Both the position numbers and the translations under genes were made by a program. The notes under the pieces were generated by a model that was not told the origin of the DNA, ran no database searches, and saw nothing but the letters and a program-made list of their open reading frames with translations. From Acidimicrobiia bacterium (lineage in GTDB: Bacteria > Actinomycetota > Acidimicrobiia > Spongiisociales > ZC4RG35): 64,000 nt of DNA. The first letter of the stretch is position 1. Each line of letters opens with the position of its first letter. The stretch covers positions 22,266-86,265 of the forward strand of contig JBIOVB010000118.1 in the NCBI GenBank assembly GCA_044867525.1, read 5' to 3'. Of the stretch, positions 13,172 to 41,103 are shown one piece after another.

Positions 13172-13429
13172 ATGAAGACAACGACCGAGATCGTCGCCGA
13201 GTACGGCACCCACCAGAGTGACACCGGTTCACCCGAGGTCCAGGTGGCTCTGCTCACCGAGAGGATCAATGAGCTCACGGAGCACCTCCGAGAGCACAAG
13301 CACGACCACCACAGCCGGCGCGGGCTGCTGATGATGGTCGGCAAGCGCCGTCGGCTTCTCGACTACCTCCGCCGTGAGGACGTCGAGCGCTACCGGAGCC
13401 TGATCGCCAAGCTGGGGCTGCGGCGCTAA
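13172..13429 (+). CDS. rpsO: 30S ribosomal protein S15
   Basis: 85 aa. [29 protein letters not shown] is canonical S15. Confidence 0.96.
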
Positions 13430-35209: not shown

Positions 35210-35790
35210 CCCAGAGACCCCTTGGTGCTGGGCACATCGGTTCCCGAGATCGCGACCGCCGACCGGAGAGACATGGCCACAGCCTTGAACGCCGCCTCAG
35301 CCTTGTGGTGGTCGTTGTCCCCGCGCAGCAGGTCGACATGGAGCGCCATCCGGGACTCCAGGGCAAAGGAGCGCAAGAAATGGATCAGGTTTTCGGTTGC
35401 CACGTCACCGACCTTCTCCCGTGTGAACGCGATGGAGATCTCCGGCCAGGGCCTCCCGGACAGATCGACGACCGCCCGGCACAGCGACTCGTCGAGTGGT
35501 GCATAGGCGTGGCCGAATCGTCTGATCCCGGCGCGGTCACCGAGGGCGTCGTCCAGCGTCCGGCCCAGGGAGAGGGCGCAGTCCTCGACAGTGTGGTGAT
35601 CGTCGATGTGGGTGTCCCCGTCCGCCACCATCTCCAGGTCGAAGCCGCTGTGCTTGGCGAGGGCACCGAGCATGTGATCGAGGAAGCCCAGGCCGGTCTT
35701 GATGTCGGCCCGCCCCGTACCTTCGAGCTCGAGCCGGCACTTGATGCTGGTCTCGGAGGTCTCCCGAGTCGTCTCTGCGCTTCGAGTCAT
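35206..35790 (-). CDS. hisB: imidazoleglycerol-phosphate dehydratase (monofunctional, no phosphatase domain)
   Basis: 194 aa. IGPD motifs DTHIDDHHTVED and the second His cluster. Confidence 0.93.
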   Translation of the reverse strand: MTRSAETTRETSETSIKCRLELEGTGRADIKTGLGFLDHMLGALAKHSGFDLEMVADGDTHIDDHHTVEDCALSLGRTLDDALGDRAGIRRFGHAYAPLDESLCRAVVDLSGRPWPEISIAFTREKVGDVATENLIHFLRSFALESRMALHVDLLRGDNDHHKAEAAFKAVAMSLRSAVAISGTDVPSTKGSLG

Positions 35791-37460
35791 GGCAACAGTC
35801 CTTCCAGATCGATGGGTTTGTCGAGGATTCGAGCCGCTTTGCGCAGGCTGTCCCGGGCTCGTCGTGGGTCGTCGCCGGGGGCGATCACACCGATCGGGAT
35901 CACCCCAGCGGATCGAGCGGCAGTGATGTCGTCGGGGGTGTCCCCCAACATCCAGGCTGCACTCACGTCGAGCAGCCTGAGCGCGAGCTCGACCGGTGCC
36001 GGGTCCGGCTTGAGCGGAGCGTCGTCCCTGGTGACGAGCACGGTGAACAGGTCGGCGACATCGAACCGGTCGAGGAACTCCTCGGCATCGGCCCGGGGCC
36101 GCCCGGTGACGACCGCAAGTGGGCGAGCGTCCGCCCAGCGGGAAAGTGTCGACCGATCCACCATGAGTGATTCGAGAGCCTTGAGCCCGGGGCGGTCGCC
36201 GCGGCCCTGATAGATGGCTTCGAAGCGCTCCATGACTTCCTGCAACGGGATGTCGGTTCCCCGCCCCGACAGCAAGGACCGGGCCAATTCCCAGTCGTCA
36301 TTGGCATTGCCCTCCGACTTCATATCCTGGATGTCGTCGGGCCCGACATCGACACCGAAGCTGCGCACGGTCTCGAGGATCGCGACCGACTGCGATTGGC
36401 TCACATCGGCAAGCACCCCATCCATGTCGAGGATCAGAGCCTGGGGAGCCAGTGCGGCGCGCAAGGCGGAGATCAGTCTCTCGAACTCGGGCCGGCGCCC
36501 GGGCAGAGTGATCCGGACCGTCCCCTCGAGGTCGCTGCGGCCCGGAAACCATCGCAAGGCAATGCCGAGAGACGCCACCGCGGAGATCAGCAGACCCGCA
36601 TCGCGGCATCGAGCGAGGACGAAGTTCGCCTCAGACGGCAGCGGGCTCGCTCCGAGCTCGCGGAGCAGGTCGGTCAACTCCGACCGCTCGCGCTTCACCT
36701 CCTCGACGAAGGCGGTGAGCTCGGATGTGGGCCATTGCAGCCGCTCCAAGGCGAGTTGGGCCGAGAGAGCGGCAACCGGATAGGGGTTGCCATGCAGCGA
36801 GATGTCGCCGACCAGGTCCGGAGGCCCGAGCAGATACCCGACCCGGAGCCCGGCCAGCCCGTACGCCTTCGACATGGTCCTGACCACCACCACGTTCTCC
36901 AACTCCAGGGCCGCCGGGGTCAGGTCGTTCCCCGCAAACTCGGTATAGGCAGCGTCGAGGACCAGGAGGCGGGCGTCGGCCGCCACTTTTCGCAGGTCGG
37001 ACTCGGTCATCGCGGCCCCGGTCGGGTTGTTGGGCGACACCAGGAACACTGCGTCGGTGCCTTCGGTGATCGAGGCCGTGATCTCCTCCGTTGGCAGATC
37101 ACCCTGCCACCAGGGGATTTCCACCAATTCGGCACCTTGCTGCCCGGCGTAGCGGGCGATCATCTCGAAGGTCGGGGTGGTGGTCACCACCCGCCTTCCC
37201 CGGCCGACCCTCGCCAGGAAACACCGGAACAGTGCGTCGTCCCCGCCGGCGGTGACGAGCACCGAGCCCGGGGGGAGGCCATGGAGGTCGGCCAGTGCTT
37301 GACGGAGAGCACCGATCTCCGGATAGCGGCTGATCGCCGACCCTGGGTCGGCTATTCCCGCAAGGAGATCTCTGGCCCGGGTCATTCCCTCGTTCTTGGA
37401 CAGGTCGAGGTCGATGGGAACGTCGAATCCGGGGGGCAGGTAAGGCGTAGGCCCGCTCAT
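35787..37460 (-). CDS. hisC: histidinol-phosphate aminotransferase fused to a C-terminal HAD-superfamily phosphatase domain
   Basis: 557 aa. PLP-Lys motif TMSKAYGLAGLRVGY (residues about 1-340). HAD motifs LILDMDGVL, VVTGRP, LKPDP, GDTPDD (residues about 341-557). Confidence 0.88.
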   Translation of the reverse strand: MSGPTPYLPPGFDVPIDLDLSKNEGMTRARDLLAGIADPGSAISRYPEIGALRQALADLHGLPPGSVLVTAGGDDALFRCFLARVGRGRRVVTTTPTFEMIARYAGQQGAELVEIPWWQGDLPTEEITASITEGTDAVFLVSPNNPTGAAMTESDLRKVAADARLLVLDAAYTEFAGNDLTPAALELENVVVVRTMSKAYGLAGLRVGYLLGPPDLVGDISLHGNPYPVAALSAQLALERLQWPTSELTAFVEEVKRERSELTDLLRELGASPLPSEANFVLARCRDAGLLISAVASLGIALRWFPGRSDLEGTVRITLPGRRPEFERLISALRAALAPQALILDMDGVLADVSQSQSVAILETVRSFGVDVGPDDIQDMKSEGNANDDWELARSLLSGRGTDIPLQEVMERFEAIYQGRGDRPGLKALESLMVDRSTLSRWADARPLAVVTGRPRADAEEFLDRFDVADLFTVLVTRDDAPLKPDPAPVELALRLLDVSAAWMLGDTPDDITAARSAGVIPIGVIAPGDDPRRARDSLRKAARILDKPIDLEGLLP

Positions 37461-38329
37461 GGCACGATTTGCTCGAGACGGGAGACGACGATGTCCGTGG
37501 CCCCCTGCTCCTTGAGCAAGGGGATCAGGGTCGGCAACTCGGAGCGAGGGACCGCGGCCTTGACCGCGAGGCCTTCTCCGTGATGAAGTGTTGCGATCGT
37601 CGGTTCCCGCATCGCGGGAAGGATCGACACCACCGAATCGAGATCGCCCCGGGCGACGTTGAGCTCGACCATGACCCTGCCCCGTGCCTGCAACACCGAG
37701 CTCAGGCTGAGGACCAGGGCGTCGATGGCGGTCTTCTTGACCGGGTTGTCCAGGGCGTTGGGATTGGCATAGAGGCGGGTCGATGAACGGAGCAACTCAT
37801 CGACGACGACCAGGCCATTTGCGGCCAGGGTCTCACCCGTTGCAGAAATGTCCACGATCACATCGGCATCCTCAGGTGGGAACACCTCCGTCGCGCCGTA
37901 GGAGTGGACGAATCCGGCATCAAGACCCTTGGATGAGATCCAGTCCCTGGTCAAACGCTCGTATTCACCGGCGACGACCAGTGGTTTGTCGGGCAGGGCG
38001 CCGTCGACCAGCAGGGACTCGGGCGCCGCGGCGACCATGCGCACCGGGTCGAGGCCGGTGTCGAGCAGTTCCACGAGGTCCGCGGACTTCTCTGCAACCC
38101 AGTCGGCGCCCGCAAACCCGATGTCCCGGGTTCCTGCGGCCAGCATCTCGACGATGTTCTGTGGTTTGAGGAGCTTCACCTCGAATCCGGGCACCGACAT
38201 CACGGGGCGATAGCCCCGTGGCCCGGCGCGTAACTCCATGCCGGCGGCAGCGAGCAATGCAGTCACAGCCGGCTCGATCCGCCCCTTGGGGACCGCGAGA
38301 TGGGTGATGGTTCCGTTTTTCGATGTCAT
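37457..38329 (-). CDS. hisG: ATP phosphoribosyltransferase, long form
   Basis: 290 aa including the C-terminal regulatory domain. First gene of the operon. Confidence 0.92.
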   Translation of the reverse strand: MTSKNGTITHLAVPKGRIEPAVTALLAAAGMELRAGPRGYRPVMSVPGFEVKLLKPQNIVEMLAAGTRDIGFAGADWVAEKSADLVELLDTGLDPVRMVAAAPESLLVDGALPDKPLVVAGEYERLTRDWISSKGLDAGFVHSYGATEVFPPEDADVIVDISATGETLAANGLVVVDELLRSSTRLYANPNALDNPVKKTAIDALVLSLSSVLQARGRVMVELNVARGDLDSVVSILPAMREPTIATLHHGEGLAVKAAVPRSELPTLIPLLKEQGATDIVVSRLEQIVP

Positions 38330-38370
38330 GCGGGCGCTTTCCCGCCGGTACAGCAGCGGGCTCCCCGATG

Positions 38371-38399
38371 ACGAGAAACGCCGACCGCTGGGGTCGGCG
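38371..38399 (-). terminator. attenuator hairpin CGCCGACC-CCAGC-GGUCGGCG followed by UUUCUCGU, between hisL and hisG
   Basis: 8-bp stem (7 G-C pairs), 5-nt loop, U-containing tail. Its 5' arm is complementary to the end of the leader ORF. Confidence 0.6.
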
Positions 38400-38433
38400 T
38401 GGGGAGGTGGTTGCCTTCGCTATGTGCCCACGG

Positions 38434-38490
38434 TCAGCCGACCCATGAAGGGTGGTGATGGTGGTGGGCGTGGGCGAACGGCCGTGTCAT
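38434..38490 (-). CDS. hisL: histidine operon leader peptide MTRPFAHAHHHHHPSWVG
   Basis: ATG ACA CGG CCG TTC GCC CAC GCC CAC CAC CAT CAC CAC CCT TCA TGG GTC GGC TGA. Six His in seven codons. 104 nt upstream of hisG. Confidence 0.7.
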   Translation of the reverse strand: MTRPFAHAHHHHHPSWVG

Positions 38491-38499
38491 GTCCCGGGG

Positions 38500-38527
38500 A
38501 GCATACGCGCTCAGATTGGGATGGCAA
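38500..38527 (-). promoter_or_regulatory. candidate his promoter TTGCCA-N16-TATGCT (minus strand)
   Basis: -10 TATGCT (38505-38500) ends 9 nt before the hisL ATG. -35 TTGCCA (38527-38522). Same hexamer pattern as the imuA' promoter. Confidence 0.4.
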
Positions 38528-38574
38528 GCGGGACACCGTCGTGTGACCGCCTCACCGTTACCCTTCACGCCCCG

Positions 38575-41103
38575 ATGACGAGAAAATTGCCGGAGAAGCC
38601 TGCCCTGGAGGGGCTCGAGGCCAAGTGGGCCCGACGCTGGGAGGACGAGGGCATCTACCGGTTCGATAGAAGCCGAGGCCGGGGGGAGATCTTCTCCATC
38701 GACACTCCGCCGCCCACTGTTTCCGGCTCCCTCCACATGGGCTCGGTGTTCGGGTATGTCCAGACCGATGCCATCGCCCGCTTTCAACGCATGCGAGGTA
38801 GGGAGGTGTTCTATCCGATGGGCTGGGACGACAACGGACTTCCCACTGAGCGACGGGTGCAGAATTTCTACGGGGTCCGCTGCGACCCCAGCTTGCACTA
38901 CGACCCGGAGTTCGCACCACCGGTCGAGCCACCCGATCCGCCGATTTCGATAAGCCGGCGCAACTTCATCGACCTCTGTCACGGGCTCACCGCGGAAGAC
39001 GAGAAGGTCTTCGAGGACCAGTGGCGCACTCTGGGGTTGTCAGTGGATTGGACCCAGACCTACGCAACCATCGACGAGCACAGCCAGCGCACCAGCCAGA
39101 AGGCGTTCCTCCGCAATCTGGCCCGCGGCGAGGCGTATTCCCAAGAGGCCCCGGTGCTCTGGGATGTCGACTTCAAATCGGCCGTGGCCCAGGCCGAGTT
39201 GGAGGACCGGGATCGACCGGCGGCATACCACCGCATCGCGTTCCATCGCGCCGACGGCGAGGTGATCCACATCGAGACCACCAGGCCAGAGCTGGTGTGC
39301 GCCTGTGTCGCCCTGGTGGCTCACCCCGAGGATGCCCGATATCAGGAATTGTTCGGGACCACCGTCACCTCACCCTTGTTCGAGGTCGCAGTTCCCGTCC
39401 TCTCCCACGAGCTGGCAGATCCCGAGAAGGGGAGCGGGATCGCCATGATCTGCACCTGGGGCGACACCGCCGATGTCACCTGGTGGCGGGAGCTCGACCT
39501 TCCAACGCGCAGTGTCATCCAACAGAGCGGCCGTCTGCGCGAAGACACCCCGGATTGGATCGAGACCGAGCTCGGCAGGCGGGCATACGGCGAGATTGCC
39601 GGCCTCTACCCGAATCAGGCGCAACGCAAGATGGCGGAGCTGCTTGCCGAGTCCGGCGACCTCGACGGGGAGCCGAAGGCGATCACCCACCCTGTCAAGT
39701 TCTACGAGAAGGGTGACCGCCCCCTGGAGATCGTCTCCAGTCGCCAGTGGTATATCCGCAACGGGGGGAGAGACGACGACCTGCGCCGCGATCTCCTGGC
39801 CCGAGGTGAGGAGTTGGACTGGATTCCCGCGTTCATGGGGGTCCGCTACCGGCATTGGGTCGAAGGCCTGAATGGTGACTGGCTGATCTCGAGGCAGCGC
39901 TTCTTCGGAGTCTCGATCCCGGTGTGGTACCCGATCGACGAGGGGGGTGAGCTCGATCTAGAGCACCCAATCGTCCCCGATGAGAGGGACTTGCCCGTCG
40001 ACCCGACGACCGATGCCCCACCCGGGTACGACGAGTCGCAGCGGGGTCAGCCCGGCGGCTTCGCCGGCGACCCCGACGTCATGGACACCTGGGCCACGTC
40101 GTCGTTGACTCCACAGATCGCCGGGCACTGGGACGACGACCAGGACCTCTTCGGGCGAGTCTTCCCCATGGACTTGCGACCCCAGGGGCCGGAGATCATC
40201 CGCACCTGGCTTTTCGCGACCGTGCTCCGCTCCCATAGTGAGCATGGTGCCCTGCCCTGGGCCCACGCCGCGATCAACGGATGGATCCTGGACCCCGATC
40301 GGAAGAAGATGTCCAAGTCGAGGGGCAACGTGGTGACACCGTCGCCCTTGATCGAGGAATACGGTGCAGAGGCCGTTCGCTATTGGGCGTGCAACGGCCG
40401 CCCGGGGGCCGACACCGCCGTCGACTACGGGGTGATGAAGATCGGTCGCCGGCTCTCTCTCAAGATCCTGAACGCCGCCAGATTCGTGCTCGGCTTCTCC
40501 GAGGATGTCGGCCCGTCGCAGGTGACCGAAGCACTCGATCACTCGATGCTGGCCGGCCTGGCTGCGATCGTCGAGGAGGCGACGGCCGCATTTGCAGGCT
40601 ATGACTATGCGAGAGCGATGGAAGTCGTCGAGGAGTCCTTCTGGGACTGGACCGATGACTATCTGGAGCTGGTCAAGGGCCGGGCCTACGACGGGGGAGG
40701 CCCCGGTGCCTCGGCGCATGCGGCATTACAGCTGGCCCTCGGCGCCTACCTCCGTCTGTTTGCGCCTTTCCTCCCCTTCGTCACCGAGGAGGTGTGGTCC
40801 TGGTGGCGCGAGGGCTCTGTTCATCTTCAGGCCTGGCCCACCGGTGAGGAGCTGGAGATGGATCGCGGCGGGGATCCCGCGGTGCTCGGTGCCATATCCG
40901 AGGTGCTCACCGCGGTCCGCCGCGCCAAATCGGACGCCAAGGCATCGATGGCCGCCGAGGTGGGATTGGTCTCGGTGACCGCCCCTGGGGACACGCTGGA
41001 GCTGATCCGGCAGGCCGAGATCGATCTCAAGGCCGCTTCCCGGGCCCGGGAGCTGGGCTATTCCCAGGGGGAGTTCACCGTGAAGGTCGAGCTCGCTGAG
41101 TGA
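38575..41103 (+). CDS. valS: valyl-tRNA synthetase (class I, archaeal-like subtype)
   Basis: ATG 38575, 842 aa. HIGH-type SLHMGS, GWDDNGLPTE, KMSKSRGN. The ORF-track start 38452 overlaps the his leader. Confidence 0.82.
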   Translation: MTRKLPEKPALEGLEAKWARRWEDEGIYRFDRSRGRGEIFSIDTPPPTVSGSLHMGSVFGYVQTDAIARFQRMRGREVFYPMGWDDNGLPTERRVQNFYGVRCDPSLHYDPEFAPPVEPPDPPISISRRNFIDLCHGLTAEDEKVFEDQWRTLGLSVDWTQTYATIDEHSQRTSQKAFLRNLARGEAYSQEAPVLWDVDFKSAVAQAELEDRDRPAAYHRIAFHRADGEVIHIETTRPELVCACVALVAHPEDARYQELFGTTVTSPLFEVAVPVLSHELADPEKGSGIAMICTWGDTADVTWWRELDLPTRSVIQQSGRLREDTPDWIETELGRRAYGEIAGLYPNQAQRKMAELLAESGDLDGEPKAITHPVKFYEKGDRPLEIVSSRQWYIRNGGRDDDLRRDLLARGEELDWIPAFMGVRYRHWVEGLNGDWLISRQRFFGVSIPVWYPIDEGGELDLEHPIVPDERDLPVDPTTDAPPGYDESQRGQPGGFAGDPDVMDTWATSSLTPQIAGHWDDDQDLFGRVFPMDLRPQGPEIIRTWLFATVLRSHSEHGALPWAHAAINGWILDPDRKKMSKSRGNVVTPSPLIEEYGAEAVRYWACNGRPGADTAVDYGVMKIGRRLSLKILNAARFVLGFSEDVGPSQVTEALDHSMLAGLAAIVEEATAAFAGYDYARAMEVVEESFWDWTDDYLELVKGRAYDGGGPGASAHAALQLALGAYLRLFAPFLPFVTEEVWSWWREGSVHLQAWPTGEELEMDRGGDPAVLGAISEVLTAVRRAKSDAKASMAAEVGLVSVTAPGDTLELIRQAEIDLKAASRARELGYSQGEFTVKVELAE

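Follow-up and report, generated by a model that had tools for sequence, protein, structure and literature searches.

The region upstream of hisG was analyzed in a stretch of 64,000 nucleotides from an Acidimicrobiia bacterium (contig JBIOVB010000118.1 of assembly GCA_044867525.1; the whole stretch is referred to as the window). Its leader very likely functions as a ribosome-mediated leader-peptide transcription attenuator, which would sense charged tRNA-His and control the hisG-hisC/HAD-hisB-hisH operon. This reading is drawn from the sequence and its comparison among relatives. The sequence elements of such an attenuator, the complementarity between them and their conservation were observed, as were codon-level selection on a run of histidine codons and co-variation of the alternative pairing partners.

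The genes valS (ATG at 38575, plus strand) and hisG (ATG at 38329, minus strand) are transcribed divergently and separated by 245 bp. On the minus strand, this intergenic region contains a short open reading frame (sORF) of 18 codons plus TGA (38434..38490; ATG at 38490-38488, TGA at 38436-38434), which codes for the peptide MTRPFAHAHHHHHPSWVG and leaves a gap of 104 nt between its stop codon and the hisG ATG. Six of seven consecutive codons specify histidine. This putative regulatory run (38452..38472, minus strand) is made up of codons 7 and 9-13 (CAC, CAC, CAC, CAT, CAC, CAC). No other site in the six frames of the 64-kb window has five or more His codons in seven, and only about 7e-4 seven-codon stretches with at least six are expected by chance from the codon frequencies of the window. 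The list of open reading frames (ORFs) shows the sORF merely as the tail of a 182-aa ORF (38434..38982). A preliminary description of this DNA had already reported the sORF with its coordinates, its peptide, its His content and the distance to hisG, and had pointed out that it is hidden in the tail of the longer ORF. All of this agrees with the minus-strand sequence and the ORF list.

Four RNA segments on the minus strand appear to form a trp-type layout (pairings 1:2, 2:3 and 3:4), with segments 1 and 2 both inside the sORF. Segment 1 (CCACCC, 38450..38455) runs from the end of His codon 12 through His codon 13 to the second base of Pro codon 14. Segment 2 (GGGUCGGC, 38437..38444, core GGGUCGG) corresponds to the last sORF codons and can pair with either segment 1 or segment 3. 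Segment 3 is the 5' arm of the predicted terminator (ACGCCGACC(C), 38391..38400) and contains GCCGACCC (core CCGACCC). Segment 4 is the 3' arm (GGUCGGCGU, 38378..38386). The loop is CCAGC (38391-38387), and a U-rich tract, UUCUCGUC (38370..38377), follows the hairpin. The complete hairpin ACGCCGACC-CCAGC-GGUCGGCGU spans 38400-38378 and has 9 bp and a stability of -16.5 kcal/mol. It had been described as an 8-bp hairpin, CGCCGACC-CCAGC-GGTCGGCG; its presence stands, but the length has to be corrected because A38400 pairs with U38378. The sequence check agrees with the earlier observations that UUCUCGUC follows the hairpin and that GGGTCGGC (38444-38437) is perfectly complementary to GCCGACCC (38398-38391); at the RNA level, GGGUCGGC of segment 2 and GCCGACCC of segment 3 are complementary at eight of eight bases. 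Just past the stop codon, the sequence CGUGGG (38427..38432) either pairs with CCCACG (38403-38398), extending the antiterminator, or with GCCCAC in the sORF, as seen in the truncated-transcript fold and in the minimum free energy (MFE) fold of the full leader. The spacer between stop codon and terminator (38401-38426, minus strand) is C-rich and G-poor (CAACCACCUCCCCAC), and this composition, but not the sequence, is kept in the relatives L001-L039 introduced below. The spacer could serve as an unstructured antiterminator loop or as a Rho-loading patch.

For the comparison with relatives, one genome per GTDB species with HisG was scanned, which resulted in 80 loci. Among these, 41 (HisG identity 93-65%) form one clade with the window on the HisG tree. 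The leader alignment consists of 40 of these leaders and the window; the remaining one (L016) is cut at the contig end and nevertheless matches the covariance model described below at 105.5 bits. The clade is labeled as Actinomycetota in 32 of 41 cases (mostly Acidimicrobiia), as Acidobacteriota or Acidobacteria in eight and as Armatimonadetes in one. The nine metagenome-assembled genomes (MAGs) with a label other than Actinomycetota (L001, L002, L003, L008, L019, L020, L022, L042 and L038) have leaders nearly identical to those of their Acidimicrobiia neighbors. Their labels are probably wrong because they are placed among Acidimicrobiia-labeled neighbors on the HisG tree. The MAG labels and the HisG tree place the window itself most likely in the Acidimicrobiia and not in the well-studied Actinomycetes; a WhiB-type marker of the phylum was looked for in the window and not found, and a look-up of its exact HisG protein in public assemblies gave no match.

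A His-rich sORF is found 93-138 nt upstream of hisG in all 41 loci (consensus MNRLFAHAHHHHHPSRVG), with a length of 18-20 codons including the stop (39 sequences). Its ATG is invariant in the 40 alignable leaders and the window. The GGGTCGG tail, both terminator arms and the U-rich tract are invariant or nearly so in the 40 aligned leaders. The two parts of the sORF are conserved in distinct ways. For the codons of the His run, entropy is about 0 bits at positions 1 and 2 and about 0.9-1.2 bits at position 3, where CAC and CAT drift freely; such synonymous-only drift is the signature of selection on His identity. The sORF tail, in turn, is conserved as RNA and not as peptide. The codon before Val is CGG, TGG, AGG or GTG (coding for Arg, Trp or Val), and its first base is the most variable position of the tail, while the GG of this codon and the third base of GTC are fixed throughout. 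Apart from its central base, the GGGTCGG core does not vary, at synonymous and non-synonymous positions alike. In two loci, L013 (2314-2382) and L023 (2326-2391), GGGTCGG is retained in another reading frame and the stop codon is located four codons further downstream.

Within the Acidimicrobiia alignment, the terminator pairing (3:4) is possible in 99.2% of the cells, with two compensatory cells, and the antiterminator pairing (2:3) in 93.8%, where the sequence is almost invariant. The 1:2 stem (CCACCC with GGGU.GG) was predicted independently by RNAalifold, together with the terminator. It is paired in 97.6% of the cells, a value that drops to 16-53% in slid controls, and shows a compensatory exchange of C-G to A-U in three sequences, which changes Pro to Gln and Arg/Trp to Val. 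The stem accounts for the Pro that comes after the His run in every case. Since the bases of the last His codon are part of a stem, this codon reads CAC in 38 of 39 sequences. The initial candidate for the 1:2 pairing came from the MFE fold, with GCCCAC (codons 8-9) pairing to GUGGGC past the stop codon. It was rejected in favor of CCACCC:GGGUCGG because it is less well supported in the alignment (85% paired, marginal covariation). Aligning the regions upstream of hisG had been proposed in the preliminary description, and the 41 loci show what was looked for: a conserved His run, conserved complementary segments and compensatory changes in the stems. The mutually exclusive terminator and antiterminator proposed there are likewise supported by conservation, by the 2:3 and 3:4 pairings and by covariation, but the 1:2 stem had been overlooked.

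A covariance model was built from the Acidimicrobiia leaders alone, with the 1:2 and 3:4 pairings as its structure and without the 2:3 pairing. This model matches immediately upstream of hisG in 16 loci labeled as other phyla, with E-values from 2e-9 to 0.016. The labels are Planctomycetota/Phycisphaerae, Acidobacteriota/Vicinamibacterales, Myxococcota, Thermodesulfobacteriota and Krumholzibacteriia, and some MAGs are labeled Proteobacteria. In the combined alignment, the central bases of segments 2, 3 and 4 change in concert. The central 2:3 pair is U-A in 35 cases, C-G in seven and U-G in five, and the central 3:4 pair is A-U in 38, G-C in eight and G-U in six. None of 500 shuffles reaches the observed count of doubly changed cells. 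Across the phyla, the 2:3 segments are paired in 90.8% of the cells, including the exchange of U-A to C-G. Because this pairing is not part of the model, its covariation is reasonably independent support for the antiterminator.

A promoter scan detected one site, TTGCCA-16-TATGCT at 38527..38500 (minus strand), where 0.1 are expected. The -35-like hexamer TTGCCA is at 38522..38527, and the -10 hexamer TATGCT (TAnnnT type, 38500..38505) ends 9 nt before the sORF ATG. The same promoter had been given in the preliminary description. In the window and in essentially all of the 40 aligned relatives, the distance from the end of a TAnnnT hexamer to the ATG is 9-10 nt, and the TTGC core of the -35 box is found 16-17 nt further upstream, at the same distance in most of the 41 relatives. 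Between the -10 hexamer and the ATG, the bases carry at most 0.3 bits of information, with a conserved ACATG, and no purine-rich or Shine-Dalgarno (SD) motif was found in this interval in the window or the 40 aligned relatives. Promoter spacing alone would place the transcription start such that the 5' untranslated region is 0-3 nt long. The sORF is probably leaderless or nearly so because of this fixed spacing in relatives and the lack of an SD motif, which agrees with the earlier suggestion of a leaderless sORF devoid of an SD. Only 47 nt separate the valS ATG from the -35 box upstream of the his leader, which means that the valS and his leader promoters must be back to back.

The following sequence of events is proposed. 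Transcription would start at, or within about 3 nt of, the sORF AUG, yielding a leaderless or nearly leaderless mRNA. When histidyl-tRNA is plentiful, the ribosome would reach the UGA codon and cover segment 2 (GGGUCGG) and CGUGGG. Segments 3 and 4 could then pair to the 9-bp GC-rich hairpin, which is followed by the U-tract, and RNA polymerase would terminate about 45-50 nt before hisG. In the absence of leader translation, segment 2 would be held by segment 1 (CCACCC), and the terminator would form again. The 1:2 pairing is also a likely pause hairpin. When histidyl-tRNA is scarce, the ribosome would stall with its A site on an early His codon (7-11), covering segment 1 and leaving segment 2 free. 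Segment 2 would pair with the emerging segment 3 before segment 4 is made, so that no terminator forms and the operon is transcribed. The start site, the intrinsic termination, the kinetic choice of structure and the response to histidine are all predicted steps of this scheme.

The ribosome geometry calculated from the coordinates fits this scheme. If one of codons 7-11 occupies the A site, the leading edge of the ribosome (about +12 nt) reaches over segment 1 but not over segment 2; if the stop codon does, both segment 2 and CGUGGG lie under the ribosome. Transcripts were also folded after truncation just before segment 4, with a ribosome masked on the third His codon. In nearly all loci, the sORF tail (positions -9 to -2, counted from the stop codon's end) is then base-paired with the 5' arm of the terminator in the MFE structure. 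Across the loci, these truncated folds have -15 to -28 kcal/mol and are thus about as stable as, or more stable than, the terminator hairpin (-14 to -21.5 kcal/mol). In the window, the antiterminator extended by CGUGGG:CCCACG reaches -22.7 versus -16.5 kcal/mol.

Several points weigh against attenuation by transcription termination. Equilibrium folds of the complete leader keep the terminator at every masked position of the ribosome. Folding with a masked ribosome footprint had been suggested as a check in the preliminary description, and in no case did the leader switch to the antiterminator. Antitermination must therefore be kinetic because the 3:4 hairpin always wins thermodynamically in full-leader folds. 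With just 7-8 bp, the antiterminator core has to close a loop of about 38 nt. Covariation within the Acidimicrobiia is thin because the stems hardly vary there, and the cross-phylum alignment was fitted to the same covariance model, even though the 2:3 pairing is outside that model. The transcription start is placed by promoter spacing only. Finally, the U-tract of the window (UUCUCGUC) is weak: four of the eight bases after the 9-bp stem are U, one U short of the rule used in the terminator scan.

The weak U-tract bears on an alternative in which the sORF senses histidine but the output is mainly translational. The position of the ribosome would alter a fold that hides the hisG ribosome-binding site (RBS), and the 3:4 hairpin would be structural and not a terminator. 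Per-sequence folds indeed predict a nested hairpin over the RBS (38327..38374, minus strand), with an outer stem CAUCGGGG/CCCG.CAUG and an inner stem CCCGCUG/CGGCGGG. The hisG SD (GGGAAAG, 38343-38337) has its first Gs in the 3' arm of the inner stem, and the outer stem closes immediately upstream of the start codon or over it; in the window, the start codon is covered. The architecture recurs in most relatives with differing outer arms (GGGC/GCCC, GUCGGCC/GGCCGAC, GGUUGGCCG/CGGCCGACC, AUAUGGGU/ACCCGUAU). Moreover, the only experimentally studied attenuator with an actinobacterial leaderless sORF acts by RBS sequestration (bioRxiv 10.1101/834739). However, a U-rich tract follows the hairpin in all 41 relatives, ranging from UUUCUCGUUU to UUUUUUUGUUU, with a run of seven U in L038 and L039, and the homologous hairpin passes the terminator rule in the relatives scanned (L007 and L038). 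No complementarity between segments 1-4 and the RBS hairpin was found in the window. The RBS hairpin is of modest stability (mean z of -1.4), and RNAalifold did not return a consensus structure for the region from the terminator to hisG of the relatives. We thus consider a mainly translational output unlikely. Transcriptional and translational layers could coexist, and the folds hint weakly that the RBS hairpin may add a layer of the latter kind.

Rho is important in Actinobacteria, and premature termination might be Rho-dependent, with release of the ribosome at UGA exposing a C-rich leader to Rho and the hairpin being mainly a pause site. The C-rich, G-poor composition of the spacer downstream of the stop codon, which is kept in relatives, is in line with this. 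The spacer has, however, only about 30 nt, which is short for a Rho-loading site, and a purely Rho-based mechanism requires neither a conserved GC-rich hairpin with a U-tract nor arms that co-vary with segment 2. Dependence on Rho is accordingly rated as very improbable. His-rich peptides can bind metals, so that the peptide might instead be a functional micropeptide such as a metal binder, or the sORF might be a chance ORF with no sensing role. None of the results obtained favors this. Against it stand the low expectation for such a run and its retention in 41 of 41 loci, always upstream of hisG. In addition, the tail varies non-conservatively (Arg, Trp, Val) over a fixed RNA, the motif is read in another frame in L013 and L023, and the end of the peptide is dictated by the pairing with the terminator arm. 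There is hardly any likelihood left for either version.

The leader is found beyond the class as well. The HisG of the window is 61-68% identical to the HisG proteins of the cross-phylum loci and 26% identical to that of E. coli. Every member of the Acidimicrobiia clade on the HisG tree has the leader, whose presence is patchy in the sister group; in the set of 80 loci, it is absent from the alphaproteobacterial and Bradymonadia branches. The leader thus goes with one HisG subfamily. The preliminary description had assumed an unusual occurrence or an independent invention in this lineage, which does not hold, as the same family precedes hisG in at least 16 loci labeled as other phyla. It is tempting to speculate, with slightly more doubt than confidence, that the window contains the founding example of an undescribed multi-phylum family of compact, probably leaderless His-sensing attenuators with the terminator core ACGCCGRCC/GGYCGGCGU. 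Whether by vertical inheritance from an ancient ancestor or by horizontal transfer, such a family would have accompanied one HisG subfamily through Acidimicrobiia, Planctomycetota, Acidobacteriota, Myxococcota, Thermodesulfobacteriota and Krumholzibacteriia, and would have been lost in the alphaproteobacterial branch; an RBS-occluding hairpin may add a translational layer to it.

Two of the cross-phylum loci have few His codons. The sORFs of L063 (2313-2432) and L054 (1684-1807) contain four and three His codons, respectively (MNPGPKHLHVIILLHHTIEGRAMV and MRIAVSHHREHGPIRAG), and retain a GGCCGG tail and the terminator. These may be weaker or decaying sensors. A second match of the covariance model in the window (13277-13364, plus strand, 21.2 bits) is located inside a coding sequence (CDS) that resembles ribosomal protein S15, and was dismissed as a chance match via His codons.

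The gene downstream of the leader (37457..38329, minus strand) codes for a long-form ATP phosphoribosyltransferase (TIGR00070, 137 bits versus a cutoff of 75.75) with the HisG C-terminal domain. It heads an operon with overlapping stop and start codons, in which a hisC-HAD fusion, hisB, hisH and further genes follow. The second gene (35787-37460, minus strand) codes for a protein of 557 aa, with a HisC-type aminotransferase (residues 22-334) and a HAD hydrolase of the TIGR01548 family (residues 340-518), both matching below the curated cutoffs. This protein is a candidate for a fused histidinol-phosphate aminotransferase and phosphatase. Inside the hisG CDS, a match to terC RNA (RF03067) was encountered (38185-38234, minus strand), which scores 30.6 bits against a gathering threshold of 39.9 (E-value 0.005) and is probably due to chance. 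The divergent neighbor valS (38575-41103, plus strand) is of the 'alt_ValS' type (NF000540, 1386.9 bits).

The finding leaves the understanding of the attenuation mechanism itself unchanged. A whole actinobacterial class gains a well-conserved His leader, and related leaders are shown to occur in several poorly studied phyla. As Rfam has no model for it, the leader is a ready-made new RNA family for annotation. It also allows one to ask in a natural system whether the coupling between leaderless translation and transcription can be tight enough for terminator-based attenuation. If the leaderless start is true, this would be the first case known to us of terminator-based amino acid attenuation via 70S loading on a 5'-terminal AUG. 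As a compact, GC-rich arrangement of four segments, the leader is also simple enough for reconstitution or for reuse as a histidine-responsive part.

Ribosome-mediated attenuation of the his operon is textbook knowledge for Gammaproteobacteria. Similar to E. coli hisL (MTRVQFKHHHHHHHPD), the leader described here has a short ORF in which Pro comes after a run of His codons and is located upstream of hisG as the first gene of the his operon. As in enterobacterial hisL, an intrinsic terminator is predicted, with alternative pairings set by the position of the ribosome. The E. coli his leader is usually described with six segments, whereas there are four here, in the style of trp. Also unlike E. 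coli hisL, segments 1 and 2 are both inside the sORF, and the sORF is probably leaderless and devoid of an SD. The two peptides have an M-T-R start and the motif HHHHHP in common, which is too short for a homology test. There is no detectable relatedness in sequence or structure. The Rfam His_leader model (RF00514, gathering score of 49 bits) gave no match up to an E-value of 10 in the region 37900-39000, none at the gathering threshold in the whole window and none up to an E-value of 1 in ten relatives, while the positive control, E. coli K-12, scored 131.6 bits. Membership in RF00514, for which such a scan had been suggested at the outset, was thus rejected. In the reverse direction, our model reaches 9.7 bits on E. 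coli, a score to which only the His codons contribute. The E. coli HisL sequence given in the preliminary description is correct, but the resemblance does not extend to detectable relatedness. Neither a T-box nor any other Rfam family matches over the leader in this region, in the whole window or in the ten relatives.

According to a summary of his regulation, attenuators are found in Proteobacteria and T-boxes in Firmicutes and Actinobacteria (Ashniev et al. 2022, PMC9413887). The same study lists candidate His-leader attenuators in the Bacillus cereus group, Peptostreptococcaceae and Erysipelotrichales, and further candidates precede hisS/hisZ paralogs in bacilli (Naville and Gautheret 2010, PMC2965389). 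Both papers cover Actinobacteria only for T-boxes. The Firmicutes candidates share with our leader a His-codon sORF with terminator and antiterminator, are not matched by RF00514 and are predictions from comparative genomics. Compared by their description alone, they differ in phylum and in the first gene (hisZ, hisS, transporters). For Corynebacterium his genes, a T-box-like element was proposed and a His leader peptide was excluded (PMC3896937). Actinobacterial leader-peptide attenuators have been reported for trp (Corynebacterium, Streptomyces), ilvB, leuS and trpS, and no conserved RNA structure was seen upstream of actinobacterial his operons in a sample outside of which the Acidimicrobiia lie (Seliverstov et al. 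2005, PMC1262725). The trp, ilvB, leuS and trpS systems are from the same phylum as the window and belong to the same classical class of leader peptide with terminator. Our literature search, which leaves aside a conference paper from 2015 (cited in PMC4833913) that deals with actinobacterial leader peptides containing His, revealed no description of a His leader in Acidimicrobiia, Planctomycetes, Acidobacteria or other phyla.

In mycobacteria, leaderless sORFs with polycysteine codons sense cysteine and unmask an RBS, thus acting at the level of translation (Canestrari et al., bioRxiv 10.1101/834739). As in that system, a short actinobacterial ORF that is leaderless (probably so in our case) contains consecutive codons for the amino acid of the pathway, and a ribosome stalled in the codon run is proposed to remodel the downstream RNA. 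The differences are the use of His codons and the hairpin with U-tract 45-50 nt upstream of hisG, which points to transcription termination. The mechanism is thus of a known kind, while the family is undescribed in Rfam and in the searchable literature. New aspects are the lineage, the link of a multi-phylum family to one HisG subfamily, a compact design with segments 1 and 2 inside the sORF, and a start that is probably leaderless.

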